From Candidatus Iainarchaeum sp. (lineage in GTDB: Archaea > Iainarchaeota > Iainarchaeia > Iainarchaeales > JAGVWC01): a DNA stretch of 64,000 nucleotides. Within the stretch, counting starts at the first letter, position 1. Each line of letters starts with the position of its first letter. Location of the stretch: contig JAGVWC010000010.1 of assembly GCA_018304465.1 (NCBI GenBank), positions 32,001-96,000 of the forward strand. Direction: 5' to 3'. Positions 45,728-64,000 of this stretch are shown piece by piece. The translations under genes were made by a program, and so were the position numbers. The notes beneath the pieces were generated by a model, which searched no databases, had not been told where the DNA came from, and saw nothing but the letters and a program-made list of their open reading frames with translations.

Positions 45728-45802
45728 TGGACGGGGCGGGATTCGGACCCGCGACCTTTGGCTTATAAGACCAATGCTCTAGCCAGGCTGAGCTACCTGT
45801 CC
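45728..45802 (-). tRNA. tRNA-Ile(UAU); CCA not encoded
   Basis: GGACAGG/CCCGTCC-A acceptor (A5-C68 mismatch), GCTC/GAGC D-stem, TTGGT-CTTATAA-GCCAA anticodon arm, GCGGG-TCCGAAT-CCCGC T-arm. Confidence 0.9.
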
Positions 45803-55231: not shown

Positions 55232-55807
55232 ATGCCGCTTGCTTTAAGACTGGAAACGTACCTCGCGAAAAAAAAACTCACGGCAGTGGAAAAAATCAGC
55301 CGCGGATTTAGTGCCGAAATCTATCTGGTCCAAACCCAAACTGGAAAAAAACGCGCCCTTAAAATCGAACGCGACGACTCGCCGCGACGCGACTTCATTT
55401 ACAAAGAAAGCGAATACCTCAAAATGGCCAACCACGTTCAGGTAGGTCCAAAATTAATCGACGCGGATTATGAAAACCGCGTGGTCCTCATGACATTCGT
55501 GGACGGAATTCCTTTTGGCAAGTGGGCCTTGGAAAAAACCACCACCAAAACCAAACTCAACCGGTGCATCCAATCGCTTTTGAAACAAGCCGACCAATTG
55601 GACCGGATCGGACTCGACCACGGACAACTCGCGGGAAAAGGAAAAAACATTCTGGTGACCAAAACAGGACAACCCGTCATCATTGATTTTGAAAAAGCCT
55701 CACCGGTCCGAAAACCGCATAACCGCGGACAAATTGAAAGCTTTTTATTCAAAAATCCCCATTCTTTCTTGGTCAAAACCGTGAAAGAAAAAACAGGCCG
55801 TGAATGA
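55232..55807 (+). CDS. Archaeal Ser/Thr protein kinase-like (RIO/Bud32-related)
   Basis: RG..AEIY, ALKIER, VGPKL, DHGQL..KNIL, IIDFEKAS. Confidence 0.8.
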   Translation: MPLALRLETYLAKKKLTAVEKISRGFSAEIYLVQTQTGKKRALKIERDDSPRRDFIYKESEYLKMANHVQVGPKLIDADYENRVVLMTFVDGIPFGKWALEKTTTKTKLNRCIQSLLKQADQLDRIGLDHGQLAGKGKNILVTKTGQPVIIDFEKASPVRKPHNRGQIESFLFKNPHSFLVKTVKEKTGRE

Positions 55808-56514
55808 AAATGCCCCAGCGCTTACGAAAAATCGCCGCCAAAGTAAAAAAAATCGTTTCCACCGCGGTCAAAACACAACGCTTAAAATCCAGGCTTAACC
55901 GCGAAATTCGCGCCCTGCAATCAAACCGCAGGACCCATGAAAAAAGAGTCCTTGGCGACATGAACCAGCGCGTCCAACTTATTCACAAAATAAAAAACAC
56001 AGAACCCGGTTTAAAACAGGAAAAATTACGCCGCCGTTTACGAGAAGTATTAACTCAATCGAACCCCGAACACGAAATCGAAAAAATAAACGAGCACTTG
56101 GCCAAAACCGAATCGCAACGCCGAAGACTCAAAAGCGTTTTGCGCGAAAAAAGATTCGGAGGACATCCAAGACGCGATATTCGAGTGCTCAAAGACCGGT
56201 TTCGCACGCGACCCCGGCTTGTTGGCGAACAACTGCGACTCGCGCGGCGCAGGGAAGAATTAAAAGCATGGGAAAAACTTTACCAAGCCCTGCGGGAAGG
56301 CGACATCCAAACGGTTCAAATGCAAAAAACCCAAGAAACGCAAACACGGCAGTCCGAAGAAAAAAAAGGCCGAAGACTCCTCAGTCAATTGGCCGCAAAG
56401 ATGCAAGCCGACATGGCCAGCAAACAGGTGGACGCCCAAACCCAACGAATAATCATTTCAAGGCGCCTCGCCGAATTACGCGTTGCAATTCAAAGAAAAA
56501 AAAGAAAAAAGTGA
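55804..56514 (+). CDS. Basic coiled-coil orphan protein
   Basis: Overlaps kinase stop; Arg/Lys-rich helical ORF. Confidence 0.55.
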   Translation: MKMPQRLRKIAAKVKKIVSTAVKTQRLKSRLNREIRALQSNRRTHEKRVLGDMNQRVQLIHKIKNTEPGLKQEKLRRRLREVLTQSNPEHEIEKINEHLAKTESQRRRLKSVLREKRFGGHPRRDIRVLKDRFRTRPRLVGEQLRLARRREELKAWEKLYQALREGDIQTVQMQKTQETQTRQSEEKKGRRLLSQLAAKMQADMASKQVDAQTQRIIISRRLAELRVAIQRKKRKK

Positions 56515-56520
56515 CCGTTT

Positions 56521-56958
56521 TTATTTTCTGAATTTCCGGTCGACTTCGTTGATCAAAACATCACACGCGGCTTTCACGGCTTCCAGCTGCAGGATGATCC
56601 GCTTTCGCTCGTTTTCAATGTCAAGAACGTTTTCGTAGGTTTCGATCGCTTCGCGAAACATTCCACCGTCGACATATGAATACGGATGCTCGTTCATTTT
56701 GGACGTGGTCCGTTCAATCATTTTTCCAAGCCAAATATTCATTTCGTCTTTGACTTGTCCTTTGATTTGTTTTCCCGAATCCAGGTACTTTCGCATCTGG
56801 TTGACCACGGTTGCGCGGGGAAACGGAAGTTTGTCCTCGGGTAATTCCTCGGGAGACGCTTCCACCGATTCGACGGTTTGGCCTACTTCTTCGCTTTCAG
56901 CGGCGTTTTCGGCCGTTTGAACCGCGACTCCATTTGATTTTGCTTCTTTTGCCAACAT
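56521..56958 (-). CDS. Putative histone-fold protein with acidic N-tail and C-terminal helix
   Basis: LPFPRATVVNQMRK...QIKGQVKDEM...YVDGGMFREAI follows alpha1-L1-alpha2-L2-alpha3 spacing; GGTGA SD. Confidence 0.6.
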   Translation of the reverse strand: MLAKEAKSNGVAVQTAENAAESEEVGQTVESVEASPEELPEDKLPFPRATVVNQMRKYLDSGKQIKGQVKDEMNIWLGKMIERTTSKMNEHPYSYVDGGMFREAIETYENVLDIENERKRIILQLEAVKAACDVLINEVDRKFRK

Positions 56959-57084
56959 ATCACCTTCAAGAAAAACGCATACAAGTAGCATTTTTATATA
57001 CAAAACAAGTGTTACATTCACAATTTAAAGGTGTCGGAGCCCCAAAAAGGCCCTTCCTTTATAAAGAAAAAGGAATTGGAGAAA

Positions 57085-57834
57085 TTATCTCCAATCCTGC
57101 GGAATCGCATATACCGGCAAAAACGTCTTATTCACGTTCGAATCCGGCCAAAACGATTCAATCCGCACATCATCATTTACCGGAAACCAAATGGTTTTGG
57201 TTTCATTCGCGTCCAAATACACGTCTCCGATCAACGGATGCCTAAAAATCAATCCGCCTTCGGCCACGTTAAACGTCCGCACTTTGAGGGTCAACACCAA
57301 AATGCTTCCTTTCGGAACCTGCACTTGCAACGGATAAAACTCCGAATCATCCGCTTGCACGGTTCGCGCCGTGGTTCTGGATCCCGATGGCGGACGCGCC
57401 CACCTTTTTTCCGTCAACACGAACGAAACAAATTCGTTTCCATCCACCGTCACCTGTTGAGACGCGGATTCGAACACAGAATCGTTTTGGTCGCCCACCA
57501 AAACATTCACGTCCAAAAACGCAAAATCCGAAAACAAACCAAACCCGTTTTGATCCGTTACCAGTTGAGCAATTTCTTGGGAATCATTGGCATCCAACAG
57601 GCGAACCAAAGCACCAGTAACCGGAGATTGGTTTTCGTCCACGACCCGCACCGAAACAAAACCCGTTAACGAAACGTTTTGATCCTGATTTTGATCCACC
57701 GGCACGTTAACATCCGGATTTCCCGGCGAATTCGAATCCGAATTCAAATCATCAGGGTTCTGCGGATTCTGCGACTGGGTACACCCAAGCAACAGCAATA
57801 CAATCGCCGCCAAAGCAAGCCATTTCAAATTCAT
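57085..57834 (-). CDS. Lipoprotein with beta-sandwich domains
   Basis: Lipobox LLGC; VVDENQSPVTGALV...TDQNG prealbumin-like pattern. Confidence 0.7.
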   Translation of the reverse strand: MNLKWLALAAIVLLLLGCTQSQNPQNPDDLNSDSNSPGNPDVNVPVDQNQDQNVSLTGFVSVRVVDENQSPVTGALVRLLDANDSQEIAQLVTDQNGFGLFSDFAFLDVNVLVGDQNDSVFESASQQVTVDGNEFVSFVLTEKRWARPPSGSRTTARTVQADDSEFYPLQVQVPKGSILVLTLKVRTFNVAEGGLIFRHPLIGDVYLDANETKTIWFPVNDDVRIESFWPDSNVNKTFLPVYAIPQDWR

Positions 57835-57909: not shown

Positions 57910-57976
57910 TGGCCTCAGTTCGCCCATCTCTCCTCACCCCTTGCGGTCAGAGTCATCGTCAGTTCGTCATCGGCCA
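57910..57976 (-). ncRNA. Box C/D 2'-O-methylation guide sRNA (67 nt)
   Basis: TGGCC-G-[C ATGACGA]-ACTGACGATGACT-[D' CTGA]-CC GCAA GG-G-[C' GTGAGGA]-GAGATGGGCGAA-[D CTGA]-GGCCA; 5-bp terminal stem, 13- and 12-nt guides. Confidence 0.85.
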
Positions 57977-58202
57977 TCAGAATAACTGGATAAAAGGTTT
58001 TTAACTGGGCGAGAAGCGGTGTTAGCGCTGGAATCGTGCCGCCCAAAAACAAGCAATTTCAATCATTTTTACCGCCCAAAGCCACCCCTGTTTCAAAATA
58101 AACCTATATTATTGATTTAATGGCTAATTTAATGGCCTTTGTTGATTTTAATTTGCCGCCCAAATGCATACAAATAAATACTATTTCGCGCATATTCTTC
58201 GT

Positions 58203-59156
58203 ATGAGTTATCTGGAAATAAAAAGACGCAATAATGAACGGTACGCGTATTTTGTCAAGAAATGGTCGCTTCAAGGAAAACGCTTTGTGTTGCGACGGTA
58301 TATCGGGAAAGCGACCAGCATGGTTTCCAAAGAGAGTTTTCTATCTAAAAACATGGGCTCATTGGTCGATGAAGAACTCAATTTACGAAAACCGATTTGG
58401 GAAAAAGCAATTTCCATATCGCATGATCCAAGGCAAATCGAGAAAGTCGAAAAAAAAGCGGTCCTGTTAAACGACCTTGTTGACGCTCAAAACGCTCAGC
58501 AACTTGTACGGGCGGAATTCGCCAAGGAATTCATTTATAATTCGAATAACATCGAGGGATCGCGTATACCAAAAGAAAAACTGGTTGAATTGTTCGAAAA
58601 AGGAACAACGTCCTACAAAAACCAAAATGAAGTGACCGAAGTAACGAATTCAATTCGGACTTTCGAGTACTTGGAAAACGATTTTGCATTCACGCTCAAA
58701 AACATCAAGCGTCTTTATTCGATTCTTACGAAAGGACTGTATCTGGAAAATCAAAACCCGTACCCGCGCGGATTCAAAAAAATCGAAATCGTGGTCGGTG
58801 AATCCAGAACCACTGCGCCTGAAGACGTTGAAGAGGAACTCAAAACCCTATTGGCCTGGAACAAAGCAAACGCCAAAACAATGTATCCCCCGCAACGCGC
58901 ATTCGAATTCCACGCACGCTATGAGCACATCCATCCATTCCAAGACGCCAACGGCCGAACCGGAAGACTTCTCCTGAACAAAATCCTGCTGCAAAACAAC
59001 TATCCGCCGATCATTGTCTATAAAGACAACAAGACGGCCTATTTCAATTCCATCAAGGAAACACAAGAAGGAAACAAAAGCAAATACTATCAATTCATGC
59101 TCGAACAAACCGAGAAGACCTACGACCAAATGATCGGCATCCTGAAAAAATACTAA
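58203..59156 (+). CDS. Fic-domain protein
   Basis: SNNIEG inhibitory-helix motif; HPFQDANGRTGR. Confidence 0.92.
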   Translation: MSYLEIKRRNNERYAYFVKKWSLQGKRFVLRRYIGKATSMVSKESFLSKNMGSLVDEELNLRKPIWEKAISISHDPRQIEKVEKKAVLLNDLVDAQNAQQLVRAEFAKEFIYNSNNIEGSRIPKEKLVELFEKGTTSYKNQNEVTEVTNSIRTFEYLENDFAFTLKNIKRLYSILTKGLYLENQNPYPRGFKKIEIVVGESRTTAPEDVEEELKTLLAWNKANAKTMYPPQRAFEFHARYEHIHPFQDANGRTGRLLLNKILLQNNYPPIIVYKDNKTAYFNSIKETQEGNKSKYYQFMLEQTEKTYDQMIGILKKY

Positions 59157-59188
59157 AAAGAGATTATCAGAAGTAGATAGCGGTAATA

Positions 59189-59207
59189 GTCAGTTCGTCA
59201 TCGGCCA
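59189..59207 (-). repeat. 19-nt exact copy of the 5' end of the C/D sRNA
   Basis: gtcagttcgtcatcggcca identical to 57958-57976. Confidence 0.85.
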
Positions 59208-59277
59208 ACAAAGACGTGCAGGCAGGATTGTTTAAACAGAATTAAATTCCTAATTTCCCCTATCGAATATTGTCTCG

Positions 59278-59670
59278 TTAAATCGACTCTTGTTCGACAC
59301 CAGCATTCATTCGCCATTTGTATAAGGCTAATCCAAGTAGGTATGGCACTCCAAGAGCCCCATAATACAATCCGGCCACTTGCCATAACCCGTAATAGAA
59401 CTCCAATGTACGCGCAATGGCAATTCCTTGCGTGAGAATTACACTGATTCCAAATACAACGGAAAAAACAATTCCGACCCACTTGAAAACTTCCGATAGT
59501 TTTTCAGCAGACGGCGGCCTCCCTTTGCTTTTTACCCCCGCATGAAAAAAGCCGATGGTGATTAATGGCGCGGGAACAAGCAGCACAGCAGAATTCATCC
59601 ACACCTGAAAAGGAGGAAGAATCAAGAAAAATAATTCCGCAACAATAAGCACCACAAGTTCTTGTTTCAT
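59278..59670 (-). CDS. Small multi-TM membrane protein
   Basis: GGTGA SD; hydrophobic helices. Confidence 0.6.
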   Translation of the reverse strand: MKQELVVLIVAELFFLILPPFQVWMNSAVLLVPAPLITIGFFHAGVKSKGRPPSAEKLSEVFKWVGIVFSVVFGISVILTQGIAIARTLEFYYGLWQVAGLYYGALGVPYLLGLALYKWRMNAGVEQESI

Positions 59671-59682
59671 GTTTGGGTCACC

Positions 59683-60012
59683 CTATGCTATCTTGGTCCC
59701 CGTGTCGAGGGCTGTTTTGACGATTCCGAGCTGGGTTTTTCGTTGCTCGATTTCTTTTGGAGTGTAGCAAAAAGGCTCGATGTCTTGGCCGATGGGTTCG
59801 GTGGATAATTGCAGTATTTGGTCGATTCGGTTTCGAAAGGTTATTCCTTCGAATTGATTAGAGATAATCAGGATATCCCAGTCGCTGTCGTTGCGTTCTT
59901 CTCCTCTGGCTCTCGAACCGAATAGAATGATTTGTGCCGGAAGAAACCGTTGTTTGATTCGAGCCACCAGTTTTTGGACTGGTTCGCTTATTCTAATTTT
60001 TTTTCCAACCAT
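59683..60012 (-). CDS. Minimal nucleotidyltransferase (MNT)
   Basis: LFGSRARG...SDWDILII. Confidence 0.9.
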   Translation of the reverse strand: MVGKKIRISEPVQKLVARIKQRFLPAQIILFGSRARGEERNDSDWDILIISNQFEGITFRNRIDQILQLSTEPIGQDIEPFCYTPKEIEQRKTQLGIVKTALDTGTKIA

Positions 60013-60368
60013 GTAATCAACTCTTTGGCGTCCATCAAAATTTCTTTGGTGATTTTTTCGTCGTAAGTTTTGGCGGGCAAATCGCCAGCCGCATCAGGAT
60101 AGCGGCTGATGATGAAATCACGGGATAGTTTGCGCGCTTTGGAAAGAAGGTTTTCGGGGACTCCGATGAGTTCTCCGAGTTCGCGCAAGTTATGAAGGTT
60201 TGGCGGGCTTTGGTTTTTTTGGAACATGAAAACGGCTTTCATGGCTTTTTCGACAGCTTGCTGGCAGAGAAAAGCGCAGACATAATAGTATTTGGTTTTG
60301 TAGTTGGATTCCGCAGCCTGCAGGTCGATTTGGGCTTGTTCCATCCATATTTCGATTTCCCGACGCAT
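59988..60368 (-). CDS. HEPN-domain protein
   Basis: A..DL..A, QQAVEKAMKA, HNL..L, SRYPD. Confidence 0.9.
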   Translation of the reverse strand: MRREIEIWMEQAQIDLQAAESNYKTKYYYVCAFLCQQAVEKAMKAVFMFQKNQSPPNLHNLRELGELIGVPENLLSKARKLSRDFIISRYPDAAGDLPAKTYDEKITKEILMDAKELITWLEKKLE

Positions 60369-60560
60369 ACAAGAGTTCTCGTTTAAAGTTGTTTTAAACC
60401 TTTGGAAAAAGATATGACACTGACTACTTCACGGTCATTGTGAGTTGAACATCAACACCCGTTATTGGTGTTACTCACTTTCATGGGCAAAACTTGCCAA
60501 TAACAAAACAATCATGCGGCGAAGTGGTTAAAATTCGGTCGCTAAACCGAGAGTGGCGGT

Positions 60561-61136
60561 TCATTCCCTGTGTTTGAACACTAGCCCGTAGTGGTGCGGG
60601 GGTAAATCGTATTTTTTGTGGAGTGTTAGCCCTGCTTTTTTTGCCCATTGTATTATTTGTTCTGGTTTTGGTCGGATTTGCATTGGTGGGCCTCTTGGCG
60701 TGGTGGGGTCGTAATTCCAGTGTATTACTGCAACAGTTCCGTTTGGGTTCAGTATTCTGCTGGCTTCGACTAGCAAGCCAACGGGGTTTTCGCCGTGCAG
60801 GATGTTGAATAGTAAGACATGCTGGACTGAATTGTCTTTGAGGCCAGTGCCGTTTCTTGAAACATCTCTTTTGAGCGTTTTAATGTTTTTCAGGTTTTTT
60901 TGTCTTGCTTGCGCTTTTAGGCGTTCAATCATTTCTGGGTCTATCTCGATTGCGAACACCGTTTCCTTAGTTCTTCTTGCTGCTGGAATGGTGAAGGTTC
61001 CATAGCCACTTCCGACATCGACTATGTGGCCTTCTTTTACCCCCAAAGTTTCAAGTATTTTTCGGGGTTTGAAGAATTTTTTCCAATGGTGTTCTTGCGG
61101 CATTCCGCTTTCTCTATACTTTGGGATTATGATCAC
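60561..61136 (-). CDS. Class I SAM-dependent methyltransferase
   Basis: RESGMP, VDVGSGYGTF, ILNPNG, TPRGPP. Confidence 0.85.
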   Translation of the reverse strand: MIIIPKYRESGMPQEHHWKKFFKPRKILETLGVKEGHIVDVGSGYGTFTIPAARRTKETVFAIEIDPEMIERLKAQARQKNLKNIKTLKRDVSRNGTGLKDNSVQHVLLFNILHGENPVGLLVEASRILNPNGTVAVIHWNYDPTTPRGPPMQIRPKPEQIIQWAKKAGLTLHKKYDLPPHHYGLVFKHRE

Positions 61137-61456
61137 CCGACTGTGAGTATTTTGTCTGAGTCTTCAACCAGATTAAGCAAATCTTTCATTGTTGAAATCG
61201 GGCAGACATTGCTTCCTTCCTTGTGCCTTGACTGGAGGCAGGTGCCGCAGGCCAATATTTTGCCCTTGTTCTGGATGAATGCGGTAATTTGTTCTTTCAC
61301 ACCATATTTTTCGTTTTCGGTATCTTCGGCTTCAACGCCCTCGTTTATGAGAAAAACCGTTACGCCATGATTTGCTTTGAGGGCAGTCACTCCGAACCTG
61401 AACGCGTTCCAGGCTTTTTCAGGTTCTTTAGTGCTTAAAACAATGCCAACTTTCAT
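61133..61456 (-). CDS. DsrE/DsrF-like protein
   Basis: VFLINEGV, ACGTCL, DKILT. Confidence 0.88.
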   Translation of the reverse strand: MKVGIVLSTKEPEKAWNAFRFGVTALKANHGVTVFLINEGVEAEDTENEKYGVKEQITAFIQNKGKILACGTCLQSRHKEGSNVCPISTMKDLLNLVEDSDKILTVG

Positions 61457-61953
61457 TTTTTCCCATCCTTTCTTTTGAATAGCAAATAAATGTTGAGCGC
61501 AATTGACGCCACCAGCAGCAACCAAAAAACAAGGTTATCCAAATAAAACGGGTTTTGCCAATAGCCTCCCAGCCCTGTTGCCCATTGCATCATCCAAGGC
61601 CCCATCATTCCCGGCCCCGTTGAGCCTATGCTTGAGCCATTGAAGCAGTGCAAATAGCTCTTGCCCATAGAAATATGCACGGCTTGCAAGGATTCAGACC
61701 CCTCGCCACCAAGCATAGCATCCATTGTTTCATGCGCCGCACCTGGATGCATTTGCTCCATTAAAGAATCTCCCAATTCTTCAAACTGAAGGTCGCTTAC
61801 CTTGCCGCAATTGATTTGACTGGCATTTGATATTCCTTGCGTGGACATTATTTCCGAGAAAACGGTTTCAACGCTTGGAATGCTTTCCGCGGCAAAAACG
61901 CCTAAAGAAAACAACAACAAAAACAACAAATTGGCAGCAGCCAACTTTTTCAT
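61453..61953 (-). CDS. Secreted/membrane Met-His-rich hypothetical protein
   Basis: Signal peptide, MEQMH...HETMD.M.GG...H, C-terminal TM. Confidence 0.65.
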   Translation of the reverse strand: MKKLAAANLLFLLLFSLGVFAAESIPSVETVFSEIMSTQGISNASQINCGKVSDLQFEELGDSLMEQMHPGAAHETMDAMLGGEGSESLQAVHISMGKSYLHCFNGSSIGSTGPGMMGPWMMQWATGLGGYWQNPFYLDNLVFWLLLVASIALNIYLLFKRKDGKK

Positions 61954-62273
61954 TTTACCACCCCGCGAACCATTTTCTGCCTGCTTTGAATCTGTTCAAG
62001 CAAAACCTCGCGAATCAGGTTGCACGCCTTCACCATTTTGGGAAAAGCGATTTTGTAATAAACCGCAGTGCCGTCTTTCCTGCTTGCAATAACCTCTTTC
62101 AGTCTCAGGATGGCGAGATGCTGCGAAAGATTCGCCTGCCTCAGGCCAGTTTGTTTGGCAAGCTCGGAAACAGATTTCTCGCCCTCGCCAAGCAAATAAA
62201 GGATTTTCAAGCGTTTTTTATCCGCCAGCGTCTTGCACAACTCTGCATGCATGCCAAATAAATCGTCATTCAT
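61950..62273 (-). CDS. ArsR/SmtB family regulator
   Basis: KTLAD.KRLKIL...SVSELA...NLSQHLAILR...G..VYY. Confidence 0.92.
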   Translation of the reverse strand: MNDDLFGMHAELCKTLADKKRLKILYLLGEGEKSVSELAKQTGLRQANLSQHLAILRLKEVIASRKDGTAVYYKIAFPKMVKACNLIREVLLEQIQSRQKMVRGVVK

Positions 62274-62322
62274 ATATTCAAATATACGAATACAACAATA
62301 TTTAAAACATAATGTGTGCGGA

Positions 62323-62334
62323 TCAGTTCGCCCA
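62323..62334 (-). repeat. 12-nt exact copy of the 3' part (guide plus box D) of the C/D sRNA
   Basis: tcagttcgccca identical to 57915-57926; short, supported by intergenic position. Confidence 0.55.
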
Positions 62335-62398
62335 ACTGCTCCGAAAGACGAAGAATTATTTACATTTCTTAAGTTCTTGAGAATGCGCTTTTGGGCAG

Positions 62399-63478
62399 TT
62401 AAGGAAAATTTACTGGTGTACGATATCCTGCCGTGACAAAGACAAGTTCTATTTGTGCCTCACCGTATTGGTTAAACACAATTGGCCCGGCAACTCCATT
62501 TATTTTCAGTTCCTGAACAGTGCCCTTTGTTATCTGCTTTTTGACAAGTGCATCCAAAACTAACATAAGATCATAGCCATAATGCGCAACAAAATCCGGC
62601 TCCGAGCCGTATTGGCTTTTGAAAGCAGCCCTAAATTGCTCCGCTTTTCCAGATTCAACTAATGCAGATGGAACCAACGAATAAACTTCTCCAAGCAGCC
62701 CCTTGGCGTTTTCCTGGACAAAGTTGCTTTGAATATCTTCTGTGGAAACCACCGGAATATTTTCCATTCCCAATTCTGACCTTTGCTTTAAAAAATTCAA
62801 AGCATGCGGAGGATAACCCAGAAAAAAGATTGCGTCCGGGTTTGTGGCTTTTATTTTGCTAAGTGTTGTTCTAAAATCAGTTTGTGATAACTGGTAATTT
62901 TCTTGAATAAGAATCTCTCCCCTGAATTCATCTTTAAACTTTTTTTGCATTGCCTGACCAAACTCATCCTGAATTATCAGAAGCGCAACTTTTTGATATT
63001 GTTTTTTATCCAAAAAATTAACAATTTTGGAAATCTGGTCACTTGGAAGCGGATACATCAGGAAGGCATATTCGCTCTTTCGCGTGTATTCAGATGGATC
63101 CAAGGAAGTCAAAGCTGCAAATACCGGAATGCTGTGCTGTTCCGCAATCGGAAGAATCGGGGAAACATGAAGCGCCTGGATTGTCAATATGACACCGGCT
63201 TGATTTGAGTCAATAAGATTGTTCAATGCAGTAACAGCTTCTTTTGGGTCTGTTTTTGTGTCTTCAATATGCAAAGCCAAATCTGAATTGTTTAAATCTT
63301 TCTGGGCAAGTTCCATTCCTCGAAAAAAATCCTGCCCAAGCGAAGCAGCGGGTCCAGTCTGTGGAATCAAGACAGCAATATTTAATTTTTCCTGCGAATC
63401 AGGTTCATTATTTTGGACACATCCGCTAAAAGCAACTATTGCCACAGTCAATACAAGCAGTAGAAAACCTGTTTTCAT
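62399..63478 (-). CDS. LivK-like (branched-chain amino acid type) substrate-binding lipoprotein
   Basis: Lipobox FSGC; PQTGPAA..G, EDT, DEFG, TDFRT.L.KIK, YGYD; no cognate permease in window. Confidence 0.85.
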   Translation of the reverse strand: MKTGFLLLVLTVAIVAFSGCVQNNEPDSQEKLNIAVLIPQTGPAASLGQDFFRGMELAQKDLNNSDLALHIEDTKTDPKEAVTALNNLIDSNQAGVILTIQALHVSPILPIAEQHSIPVFAALTSLDPSEYTRKSEYAFLMYPLPSDQISKIVNFLDKKQYQKVALLIIQDEFGQAMQKKFKDEFRGEILIQENYQLSQTDFRTTLSKIKATNPDAIFFLGYPPHALNFLKQRSELGMENIPVVSTEDIQSNFVQENAKGLLGEVYSLVPSALVESGKAEQFRAAFKSQYGSEPDFVAHYGYDLMLVLDALVKKQITKGTVQELKINGVAGPIVFNQYGEAQIELVFVTAGYRTPVNFP

Positions 63479-63510
63479 GCATTTACAATATTATTTTTTA
63501 AATTTAAAAA

Positions 63511-63642
63511 TCCCTCGGTGCGCCCAGCTTTCGTCATCGCCGTCACGTCCGGCGCGTACGGGCACTAGCGCACTACGTTCGATAGGGCTGCTTGCTGCGC
63601 CTTTAGACCGACTCAGAGTCATCCTCAGTTCATCATCGGCCA
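63511..63642 (-). ncRNA. Second, diverged C/D-like copy with 75-nt structured insert between D' and C'
   Basis: 5' 30 nt match 57947-57976 at 28/30; C ATGATGA, D' CTGA, C' ATGACGA, guide AAGCTGGGCGCA, D variant CCGA. Confidence 0.7.
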
Positions 63643-63694: not shown

Positions 63695-64000
63695 TCATGC
63701 TATTTCGGCGGGTACTCTTTTGGGAACGCCAGATGGGCGAATTCTTTCTCGTGTTTCGATGGATGCAAGCAGAGAGTCCAGTGCTTGTTGTCCTTGGGCC
63801 GTTTTTCCTTTGAAGAACTTGTGATATGCGTGTCTGGCAAAAAAGTAGGTGTCCCAAAACTCTTTGTTTCGTAAAAAAGACTGAACTATTTCTCTGTCGG
63901 GATATGCCCGCAAAAAGTAGTATGGGTTTTGGGTGAATCGAATGAATTTTCCCAAATCCATTTCCGCAATTCCCAATTTTATTGTAAGGTCGTCAATCAT
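63695..64000 (-). CDS. Hypothetical protein, probably 5'-truncated by window edge
   Basis: Open frame to the end of window. Confidence 0.45.
   Translation of the reverse strand: MIDDLTIKLGIAEMDLGKFIRFTQNPYYFLRAYPDREIVQSFLRNKEFWDTYFFARHAYHKFFKGKTAQGQQALDSLLASIETRERIRPSGVPKRVPAEIA

Follow-up and report, generated by a model that had tools for sequence, protein, structure and literature searches.

Small DNA modules, often with toxin-antitoxin genes, can be moved between short sites by the host recombinase in trans, as in the Xer-dependent modules (integrative mobile elements exploiting Xer, IMEX, and the pdif modules of Acinetobacter plasmids). The attC sites of integrons are imperfect palindromes ending in RYYYAAC and GTTRRRY. 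Integrons and clusters of attC sites lacking integron-integrases (CALINs), including archaeal ones, have been described by Ghaly et al. (2022, PMC9668308), and the name Iainarchaeota has no occurrence in the main text of that paper, its supplements not being covered here. Other elements use tRNA genes as targets, and a review on archaeal tyrosine recombinases and their tRNA targets (PMC8371274) has, in the available part of its text, no mention of small RNA (sRNA), snoRNA or non-coding RNA targets. For Pyrobaculum, Lui et al. (2018, PMC6009581) reported duplicated and composite box C/D sRNAs, transposon-like copies of them and pseudogenes at distances of a few kb; in the available text the stem 'integrat' has no occurrence and sRNA genes as integration targets are unmentioned. 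In the literature searched, which did not extend to supplements such as data S1 of PMC9668308, we found no C/D sRNA gene as integration site and no such arrays in Iainarchaeota. In this study, we analysed a window of 64,000 nucleotides from Candidatus Iainarchaeum sp. (contig JAGVWC010000010.1, positions 32,001 to 96,000), in which an intact box C/D sRNA gene is followed by partial and full copies of itself standing between accessory genes.

The window probably holds most of an 8.6-kb array of gene cassettes built on this conserved sRNA gene. We favour, with some confidence, an integron-like cassette platform which recombines at both ends of the sRNA gene, with a putative enzyme acting in trans. 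An earlier note, made from the letters of this DNA alone, had suggested the sRNA gene as integration site or cassette boundary, and its claims are taken up below together with the evidence on them.

Materials and methods

The window corresponds to C15:32001-96000 of the genome studied here (G000; 1.25 Mb, 15 contigs, contig GC content 0.46-0.50). Other G numbers stand for genomes of relatives, most of them incomplete metagenome-assembled genomes (MAGs), and L numbers for fetched stretches of DNA. For the allele scan, 18 genomes with a full sRNA copy and their fetched flanks were used, each scanned with its own sRNA. For recombinases, the search was confined to the tyrosine family (PF00589) in 21 genomes. 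With one mismatch allowed, the pattern for the arms as terminal inverted repeats (TIRs) was swamped by chance matches (AT-rich genomes, similar control counts), and only matches with no mismatch were used.

To study variation in natural populations, Logan contigs from four runs were aligned to a 9.6-kb stretch with the array (L146; L146 coordinates equal window coordinates minus 57400). These are metagenome contigs with at least 90% likeness. The skip joints 3277>3570 and 4361>4703 had sides of 21-22 nt and were disregarded, and uncovered parts in runs X8 and X9 were not interpreted. The public runs containing the locus are groundwater and soil metagenomes, with no RNA run listed among them.

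A conserved box C/D sRNA gene as anchor of the array

The gene at the end of the array, sRNA1 (Table 1), is, judged from its sequence, a genuine box C/D sRNA conserved across Iainarchaeales, an order of DPANN archaea. On the minus strand its order is UGGCC-G-AUGACGA-ACUGACGAUGACU-CUGA-CCGCAAGG-GUGAGGA-GAGAUGGGCGAA-CUGA-GGCCA, which comprises a UGGCC stem, the C box AUGACGA, a 13-nt D' guide, the D' box CUGA, a loop, the C' box GUGAGGA, a 12-nt D guide, the D box CUGA and the GGCCA stem in the canonical layout C, D', C', D. In most relatives the C box is AUGAUGA, and across copies the D box is CUGA or CCGA and the C' box GUGAGGA or AUGAYGA. Kink-turn (K-turn) geometry requires a 3-nt bulge before the tandem GA, and on the 5' strand of sRNA1 a 3-nt bulge (GAU) is located ahead of the tandem GA.

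Matches to sRNA1 at E<=10 were obtained in 30 of 41 genomes (40 relatives and G000), and about 20 of the 40 relatives have near-full-length homologues with 74-92% identity. A pattern scan of GTDB species genomes gave 27 stretches, 19 from archaeal MAGs (10 of these Candidatus Iainarchaeum) and 8 from bacteria, approximately the number expected by chance. In the sRNA alignment, boxes and guides are invariant, and the termini are variable yet complementary. Based on 28 sequences, the terminal stem and a 2-bp loop stem are paired in 88.6% of cells versus 59.5% after shuffling (reached in 0 of 500 shuffles), and only 33-43% of stem cells pair when the partners are slid as a control. All seven stem pairs change on both sides (five of five terminal pairs, and the loop pairs 34-47 and 35-46). 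Layout, relatives and covariation thereby agree with the intact C/D sRNA reported at 57910-57976 in the earlier note. The best Rfam match of sRNA1 is sR2 with 22 bits (gathering score 42), all C/D matches being below threshold; since the models are specific to single sRNA families, this shortfall is no argument against the C/D class. At gathering thresholds, Rfam gave two tRNAs and nothing else for the whole window.

The D' guide can pair with 16S rRNA (GGUCAUCGUCAGC, positions 1008-1019, own numbering) by 11 Watson-Crick pairs and one G.U pair. The target nucleotide of such a guide lies opposite the fifth base upstream of D or D' (N+5 rule), and by this rule 16S A1012 (own numbering) is the predicted methylation target. 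For the D guide GAGAUGGGCGAA, no convincing target was found in 16S rRNA, 23S rRNA or the 23 tRNAs found in the genome; it is as conserved order-wide as the D' guide, and its 3' part is the core of the O3 element described below. G000 also has archaeal-type tRNAs, archaeal rRNAs (contig C14) and fibrillarin, a protein of C/D ribonucleoproteins (C15:216995-217645, 230 bits).

Copies of the sRNA gene ends

The sense strand of the sRNA is the minus strand, and all copies are co-oriented. In addition to sRNA1, the window contains an exact 19-nt match to its 5' end (59189-59207), an exact 12-nt match to its D-guide/D-box part (62323-62334; 14 of 15 letters over 62323-62337) and a second full copy, sRNA2 (63511-63642), with 28 of 30 letters matching at the 5' end. 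Thus, all four same-strand copies listed in the earlier note are present in the sequence. By whole-genome blastn (1.25 Mb), the 5'-end repeat is confined to the array locus, with five copies in 8.6 kb on one strand: C15:89947-89976 (sRNA1), 91189-91207, 95613-95642 (sRNA2), 96730-96750 and 98493-98511. The last two are past the window end, at window-equivalent positions 64730-64750 and 66493-66511. A census of the motif GATGAYGAACTGAC with at most one mismatch also gave five matches in the genome, all at the array locus. The 19-nt 5'-end copies are therefore not spread genome-wide; a genome-wide spread without link to accessory genes was an outcome that, according to the earlier note, would speak against an integration site.

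Chance matches or assembly artefacts as the source of the repeats can practically be dismissed. Taken alone, the 12-mer at 62323 is at the genome-wide chance level, as this explanation would have it, with seven other blastn matches of 12-14 nt in the genome; the 19-nt copies are found only at the array locus, however, and many other genomes and metagenome contigs also contain the elements. Also, Logan contigs from other samples run across both sRNA1 and sRNA2 and across every fragment between them. The repeats are thus not products of assembly, and the misassembly considered in the earlier note does not account for them.

In sRNA2, about 74 nt are inserted between the D' and C' boxes, a place where a few nucleotides are the rule in archaeal C/D sRNAs, and the D' guide has one central mismatch to the 16S target. 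The only full copy found in G026 (L033:8175-8307), a genome from another family, has a similar hairpin-forming insert of about 70 nt at the same position, and the two inserts are homologous at both edges (..GACGGCGA(A)UGA). sRNA2 may have arrived with a cassette-bearing element.

Boundary elements with conserved arms

On comparison across genomes, the "fragments" are parts of conserved 45-60-nt boundary elements common to several families. O5 elements are found upstream of full sRNA copies and consist of a TATA-like or promoter-like box 20-33 nt upstream, a core (T)GCCGATGAYGAACYGRC representing the 5' 19 nt of the sRNA, and an arm (A/G/T)ATTAC-N11-12-TCTAGATAATAT. This arm is present in G000 (three copies), G026 (two copies), G028, G104 and G013, and a further arm of the type AATTAC-N11-TCTAGATAATAT was found in G014 without mismatch. 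The arm of O5#2 in the window is homologous to the arms of O5#4 and O5#5 and to arms in G026, G028 and G104. O3 elements consist of an arm GTAAYTAAY..TCATCTTTCGG followed by the 3' 15-19 nt of the sRNA, in detail (G)TAAYTAAY..YTCATCTTTCGGNNNAGA before the core TGGGCGRACYGA-GGC.

Within 30 nt upstream of 33 of the 44 non-full O3 copies, TCATCTTTC is found with at most two mismatches. Where a locus also has a full copy, the non-full O3 cores (35 in total) share the strand of that copy in 34 cases, with 32 located downstream and 2 upstream of it, and the antisense control search gave a single weak match with four mismatches. A search of 196 genomes of the order for the pattern CTTTC-N5-8-TGGGCGRACYGA gave 25 matches, distributed over 16 genomes, and none for the reversed control pattern. 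The 12-nt fragment in the window is real because 62323-62347 is one of these 25 matches; this 25-nt string, CTTTCGGAGCAGTTGGGCGAACTGA, is letter-identical to G001:C121:2855-2879 and G107:C5:7435-7459. The exact 3' match in the earlier note hence stands, albeit as part of a 25-nt O3 element and not as a bare fragment. Six metagenome contigs, mostly of about 1-2 kb, carry an O3 element with the same arms (contig scan).

The proposed 5' site, (T)GGCCGATGAYG-AACTGAC, comprises the C box with the first letters of the D' guide, and the proposed 3' site, GATGGGCG-RACTGAG-GC, covers the D-guide end, the D box and half of the terminal stem. A motif GATGR..CGAACTGA is common to the O5 and O3 cores, which suggests one recognition logic at both gene ends. 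In O3, the 3-4 bases after CUGA are uniform per genome, being AGCC in G050 and GGC in the others. This holds even where these genomes have the same Fic cassette, as would fit an identity requirement in the crossover region. O3 itself has only an imperfect CTCATCT-N8-AGATGGG repeat, and on inspection part of its arm resembles the reverse complement of the D'-loop-C' segment of the sRNA.

Each element holds either the C-box half or the D-box half only, and for this reason a boundary element would be unable to form a C/D K-turn alone. Punctuation by L7Ae-bound K-turns, the alternative given in the earlier note, accordingly gains no support. A related possibility is that the elements are expression signals spread by duplication in an ordinary variable region. 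O5 would then be a promoter with leader and O3 a 3'-untranslated region and terminator, with a hairpin YUCAUCUU/AAGAUGGG ahead of a U-rich tract, and the elements might also be bound by proteins of the C/D ribonucleoprotein (RNP). This is in line with the TATA-like box about 20-33 nt upstream of every O5, with the AT- or T-rich sequence after O3 copies, which sit behind co-oriented genes, and with a possible pairing of O3 arm and core seen on inspection. We nevertheless consider it quite unlikely, as there is only half a C/D K-turn per element and, the core side being invariant, no support for the hairpin from covariation. Also, expression signals alone fail on the insertion polymorphism between G093 and G095, which overlaps exactly at O3, and on the reciprocal junctions with inverted arms (see below). 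Signal and recombination roles of the elements are compatible and could coexist.

Empty and occupied alleles at a syntenic locus

On its 5' side the sRNA gene is accompanied by EndA (tRNA-splicing endonuclease) and a gene similar to class I tryptophanyl- or tyrosyl-tRNA synthetases, and on its 3' side by a 166-aa protein and a RIO-like kinase. This synteny was found in G018, G020, G024, G026 and G039 and partially in others; homologues of the 191-aa (RIO-like kinase) and 166-aa proteins lie beside the sRNA in the same five genomes and in others. In the ancestral order, EndA and the synthetase-like gene are next to the sRNA (in G000 at L001:8798-10513, i.e. C15:104798-106513), and in several families the RNA-processing enzyme EndA has stayed linked to the guide RNA.

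G020 has a compact allele with the order 166-aa gene, sRNA, EndA, where the sRNA is 0.4 kb away from EndA. In G000, the gap between sRNA1 and EndA amounts to 14.8 kb, 8.6 kb of which is punctuated by sRNA-derived elements. In the allele scan, a bare sRNA with no further match of at least 12 nt was found in 9 of 18 genomes, extra same-strand terminal fragments of at least 14 nt in five (G000, G002, G026, G028 and G014), a second full copy in three (G018, G011 and G038) and only a 13-mer in G022. At least a dozen genomes have arrays of up to 10 cassettes at the syntenic sRNA gene. Both the empty allele and the different cargo at the same sRNA gene, which the earlier note had named as support, were thereby found.

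Two full sRNAs are arranged in tandem about 100 nt apart in G173 (L147:4760-4932) and G011 (L037:3425-3612). In G018 they are 4 kb apart around genes for a radical-SAM protein, a methyltransferase and an AsnC-type regulator (L035:6701-10882), and in G038 they are inverted. In G026, the molybdopterin oxidoreductase gene beside the sRNA contains an intein with a LAGLIDADG domain (L033:8311-10062).

Cassettes duplicated and permuted as units

In G173, ten O3 elements stand behind two tandem sRNAs within 10 kb, and the cargo comprises a winged helix-turn-helix (wHTH) nucleotidyltransferase/HEPN pair, DUF4258/MqsA-like, GT2, wHTH-Fic and ribbon-helix-helix/PemK genes and unknowns. Two cassette types are duplicated in this array with their edges at the core; from these duplicates it follows that an arm with its core goes with the cassette before it, and that the letters directly behind GGC go with the next one. 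The cassette order is permuted between genomes, with GT2, Fic and AbiE-like cassettes in G028 and AbiE-like, Fic and other cassettes in L133 (75-83% DNA identity for the AbiE-like and Fic cassettes). Also, the 5' end of the Fic cassette (TATAAAGGACTTAA..) is found behind five different upstream arms in five genomes.

The congeneric genomes G093 and G095 have one cassette in common (92% identity; backbone 85%) and differ by whole cassettes, namely an extra Fic cassette at O3 in G095 and an extra cassette next to the sRNA in G093. The common cassette ends exactly at the O3 core in both genomes, the backbone alignment starts inside O3, and the 32-nt O3 element is the sole overlap of the cassette and backbone alignments. 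In the Pfam-scanned arrays, the cargo consists mostly of toxin-antitoxin or abortive-infection-type pairs, plus methyltransferases and glycosyltransferases. One mark of an integron, co-oriented arrays with cassettes moving as units, was thus found at these loci.

The repeats could in principle be passive scars, left after integrase-bearing elements had entered the sRNA gene and decayed to att remnants and toxin-antitoxin genes. Accessory DNA between direct repeats of a gene end is also what is described for tRNA targets (PMC8371274, as far as its available text goes), toxin-antitoxin genes are the expected survivors of decay, and no recombinase was detected with PF00589. Decay does not predict, however, that arms are conserved across unrelated cassettes and families or that cassettes are duplicated and permuted as units, and integrase relics are missing in more than a dozen arrays, including one with 10 cassettes. 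Passive scars are therefore an unlikely explanation. Islet accretion with partial repeats, as proposed in the earlier note, is supported with regard to the sRNA target and to accretion, but the elements are not bare scars, having arms that do not derive from the sRNA. These conserved arms make the system more similar to integron cassettes than to decayed islands.

Junctions and proposed mechanism

Two sRNA copies are without a C box, one in G050/L133 (L133/L158:860-953) and one in Ca. I. andersonii (L126:2210-2300). They start with ..ATATTATCTAGA-N10-GTAATC-AACTGAC-GATGAC.. and continue with the remainder of the sRNA; in L126 the arm is diverged. Relative to the O5 arm, this arm is an inverted repeat, and junctions of both types contain AACTGAC. 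An insertion into the D' guide may have left the two copies as its reciprocal junctions, and AACTGAC looks like a 7-bp overlap between inverted GTAAT/ATTAC half-sites, as in conservative recombination.

The AACTGAC junctions could equally be read as those of a TIR element with a 7-bp duplication. Under this explanation, the O5 events would be insertions of a non-autonomous transposon (a carrier similar to miniature inverted-repeat transposable elements, MITEs) into AACTGAC of the D' guide, and the O3 arrays would be a separate phenomenon. Junctions with AACTGAC exist both for a left end (AATTAC..TCTAGATAATAT) and for a right end (ATATTATCTAGA..GTAATC), and sRNA-resembling MITE-like elements have been described for Pyrobaculum (available text of PMC6009581). 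Only two right-end junctions stand against about 10 left-end junctions, however, and in the window, G026, G028 and G104 the left ends are upstream of an intact sRNA without a right end. Neither a transposase, in searches without the DDE and HUH families, nor a second target elsewhere in the genome was detected. We regard such a carrier as very unlikely. In the DNA fetched, left-end and right-end junctions are never paired around one element.

We propose the following mechanism for an integron-like platform. The 5' and 3' ends of the sRNA gene would each serve as a recombination site for mobile cassettes of 0.5-4 kb with one to a few genes, each cassette combining a conserved arm with a mimic of one end of the sRNA. 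A circular cassette would enter the sRNA gene of the chromosome by conservative site-specific recombination, which would restore a complete sRNA and leave one boundary element, O5 upstream or O3 downstream. Repeated insertions would result in stacked cassettes. In most arrays, including that in the window, an intact full sRNA with its own promoter-like box lies downstream of O5, so incoming DNA must normally supply promoter and 5' end. The enzyme could be the XerA-like recombinase, an integrase of about 400-500 aa encoded elsewhere, or another protein, in each case acting in trans. A guide sRNA gene as target with tandem accretion of islets, the central idea of the earlier note, is supported by the empty alleles, the differing cargo and the confinement of the repeats to the locus.

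Search for a recombinase

PF00589 is absent from the window, in agreement with the earlier note, and the only match on its contig is at C15:3028-3408, outside the window. A recombinase beyond position 64000, which the note had considered, was not detected by PF00589 there or near any array examined. Every genome searched has one XerA-like gene. The best tyrosine-recombinase match in G000 (C6:162357-164093) consists of two Pfam stretches about 1.2 kb apart in one 710-aa frame; the gene is XerA-like, and the split may be due to an intein or an insertion. The integrase loci of G000 have no O5 or O3 motifs nearby. In the six metagenome contigs with O3, no recombinase was evident on inspection of open reading frames (ORFs), without Pfam scan. 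Core matches in viral contigs (66) were rejected as chance matches, because they are inside coding regions of unrelated phages, with no full sRNA and no attP-like context.

Several observations weigh against an integron-like platform with a trans-acting enzyme. PF00589 was not found on the array contig regions and fetched flanks of the 21 genomes, and the Pfam-scanned cassette ORFs have no match to a recombinase family. Longer non-Xer integrases (about 400-500 aa) occur in genomes with and without arrays, and scans of viral and metagenome contigs gave no circular cassette and no attP-bearing virus or plasmid. The HicBA cassette of G001 is flanked by O3, and homologous cargo is behind an O5 element in G000; cassettes are thus maybe not tied to one site type. 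The array of G000 has mixed O5 and O3 elements and two full sRNAs, which is not explained by accretion at one site. In the O3 element of the window, the terminal-stem bases are lost by degeneration to TCCGC. The aligned copies of the O3 arm show no compensatory changes, and the arm may be a protein site or an RNA signal. Finally, absences are weak evidence because most of the genomes are incomplete MAGs.

Population data

In several runs, contigs diverge from the array at L146:6094-6098, 13-17 nt past the 3' end of sRNA2, and one contig diverges at L146:7337, inside O5#4. Divergence at these two places would fit cassette-level variation among co-occurring strains. A back-joint L146:7357>6078 (window 63478 to about 64757) with 16 extra letters was seen in three runs at 2-4 times the neighbouring depth. 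The unit it encloses comprises sRNA2, the kinase-like gene and O5#4, and the joint could be a tandem duplication, a circle or the arrangement of another strain. As these are metagenome contigs at a likeness of at least 90%, the population evidence has modest weight.

Gene content of the array and its surroundings

On the minus strand, the array starts with O5#5, methyltransferase and HicBA genes, O5#4, kinase-like gene and sRNA2. It continues with the LivK-like gene, O3, the operon for ArsR, 166-aa protein, DsrE and methyltransferase, the HEPN, MNT and membrane protein genes, O5#2, Fic, sRNA1 and the backbone. The features within the window are listed in Table 1. Beyond the window, the kinase-like gene, HicA/HicB and a methyltransferase gene are followed by a GNAT gene, archaeosine TGT and AlaX-like genes. 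The gene blocks named in the earlier note (Fic; membrane protein plus MNT/HEPN; ArsR-DsrE-methyltransferase; LivK-like) were recovered by Pfam. Their higher AT content is also borne out, if modestly, with a GC content of 0.39-0.45 across 57.5-64 kb versus mostly 0.46-0.52 upstream in the window.

Table 1. Features of the cassette array and the adjacent backbone in the window (window coordinates)
Feature	Position	Strand	Basis and remarks
RIO-like kinase (191 aa), backbone 3' of sRNA	55232-55807	plus	Pfam
236-aa ORF, no assignment, backbone	within 55232-57021		between RIO-like kinase and 166-aa gene
166-aa conserved protein, backbone	56521-57021	minus	homologues beside sRNA in relatives
Secreted CarboxypepD_reg-like protein, last backbone gene before sRNA	57085-57834	minus	weak Pfam match, 21.8 bits, below curated cut-off
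sRNA1, intact box C/D sRNA, array anchor	57910-57976	minus	sequence, relatives, covariation
Fic-domain gene, sole cargo between sRNA1 and O5#2, antisense to sRNA	58164-59156	plus	PF02661, 59 bits
O5 element #2	59160-59240	minus	promoter-like box TGTTTAAAC; core 59189-59207 TGGCCGATGACGAACTGAC; arm 59160-59188 TATTAC..CTGATAAT
130-aa membrane protein, MNT nucleotidyltransferase (59683-60012), HEPN (59988-60368)	59278-60368	minus	Pfam
S-adenosylmethionine-dependent methyltransferase, DsrE-like, 166-aa protein without assignment, ArsR regulator (operon)	60561-62273	minus	Pfam
O3 element	62323-62365	minus	arm ATGTAAATAATTCTTCGTCTTTCGGAGCAGT and core TGGGCGAACTGA (D-guide end and D box)
Periplasmic solute-binding protein (LivK-like), between sRNA2 and O3	62399-63478	minus	PF13458, 134.8 bits
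sRNA2, paralogous full copy	63511-63642	minus	C box AUGAUGA, D box CCGA, GC-rich insert of about 74 nt
334-aa kinase-like gene, 3' part, runs off window; cargo between sRNA2 and O5#4	63695-64000	minus	APH, 20.1 bits, below cut-off

Between the methyltransferase operon and the HEPN gene there is a non-coding gap of 190 nt (60369-60560). A stretch in this gap (60429-60458, minus strand) is a weak look-alike of the sRNA 5' half and at most a possible degenerate copy, with an ungapped identity of 63% and a local alignment score of 22 that was reached by 6 of 300 shuffles. The gap has no Rfam match, and a GC-rich stretch beginning at about 60530 reaches beyond it to the 3' end of the neighbouring ORF. 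Elsewhere in the window, a tRNA-Ile with the anticodon TAT, an uncommon means of AUA reading, is encoded at 45728-45802 on the minus strand.

Discussion

It is possible, though we put it at somewhat less than an even chance, that the Iainarchaeales have an integron-like capture system of their own, unrelated to IntI/attC, whose cassettes are exchanged between lineages by an unrecognised recombinase, such as the housekeeping XerA or conceivably an sRNA- or RNP-guided protein. If the platform proposed here is true, the tRNA and tmRNA genes known as targets of recombination would have a box C/D sRNA gene at their side, used at both ends, and single-operon cassettes that are captured, stacked and reshuffled would be a second, independent integron solution. 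It would occur in host-dependent archaea with 1-Mb genomes, which are thought to exchange genes intensively, and would explain the location and turnover of much of the toxin-antitoxin and defence gene load in these genomes. O5 and O3 would then be defined short DNA sites for fishing a new site-specific recombinase. The O3 and O5 motifs are also a practical marker for variable regions in DPANN metagenome bins.

Comparison with known systems

As in Pyrobaculum (available text of PMC6009581), the C/D sRNA genes studied here are evolutionarily plastic. In Pyrobaculum, however, the sRNA genes themselves move, and that text describes no protein-gene cassettes bounded by sRNA ends. With the IMEX and pdif modules, the arrays have in common small toxin-antitoxin modules, short conserved sites and a XerA-like gene in every genome examined; unlike pdif, the sites are not dif-like 11-6-11 palindromes.

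Elements targeting tRNA or tmRNA genes, as described in the available text of PMC8371274, are similar in that a small stable RNA gene is the target, the gene end is restored, partial direct repeats result and tandem accretion is possible. As at tRNA-type islands, a repeat of the gene end is found at the far boundary and the intact gene at the near boundary; an element-encoded integrase beside the att site was not found by PF00589 and Pfam in the arrays examined. In contrast to these elements, the target here is a C/D guide sRNA, the units are single operons without integrase, and both gene ends are used.

The closest likeness in function is to integrons and CALINs (PMC9668308, main text), where small cassettes with many toxin-antitoxin genes are also arrayed in one direction and have conserved end elements of a recombination type. 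As in CALINs, cassettes are shuffled, duplicated and present or absent in relatives, often with no adjacent integrase (same source). Unlike in integrons, RYYYAAC and GTTRRRY boxes are missing at the O3 and O5 boundaries when compared by eye, no IntI was found by PF00589 in the 21 genomes, and the cassettes apparently have AT-rich promoters of their own. The insertion point is the end of an RNA gene and not an attI site beside intI, and in place of one site type there are two, one per gene end, formed by mimics of the sRNA ends with their own arms.

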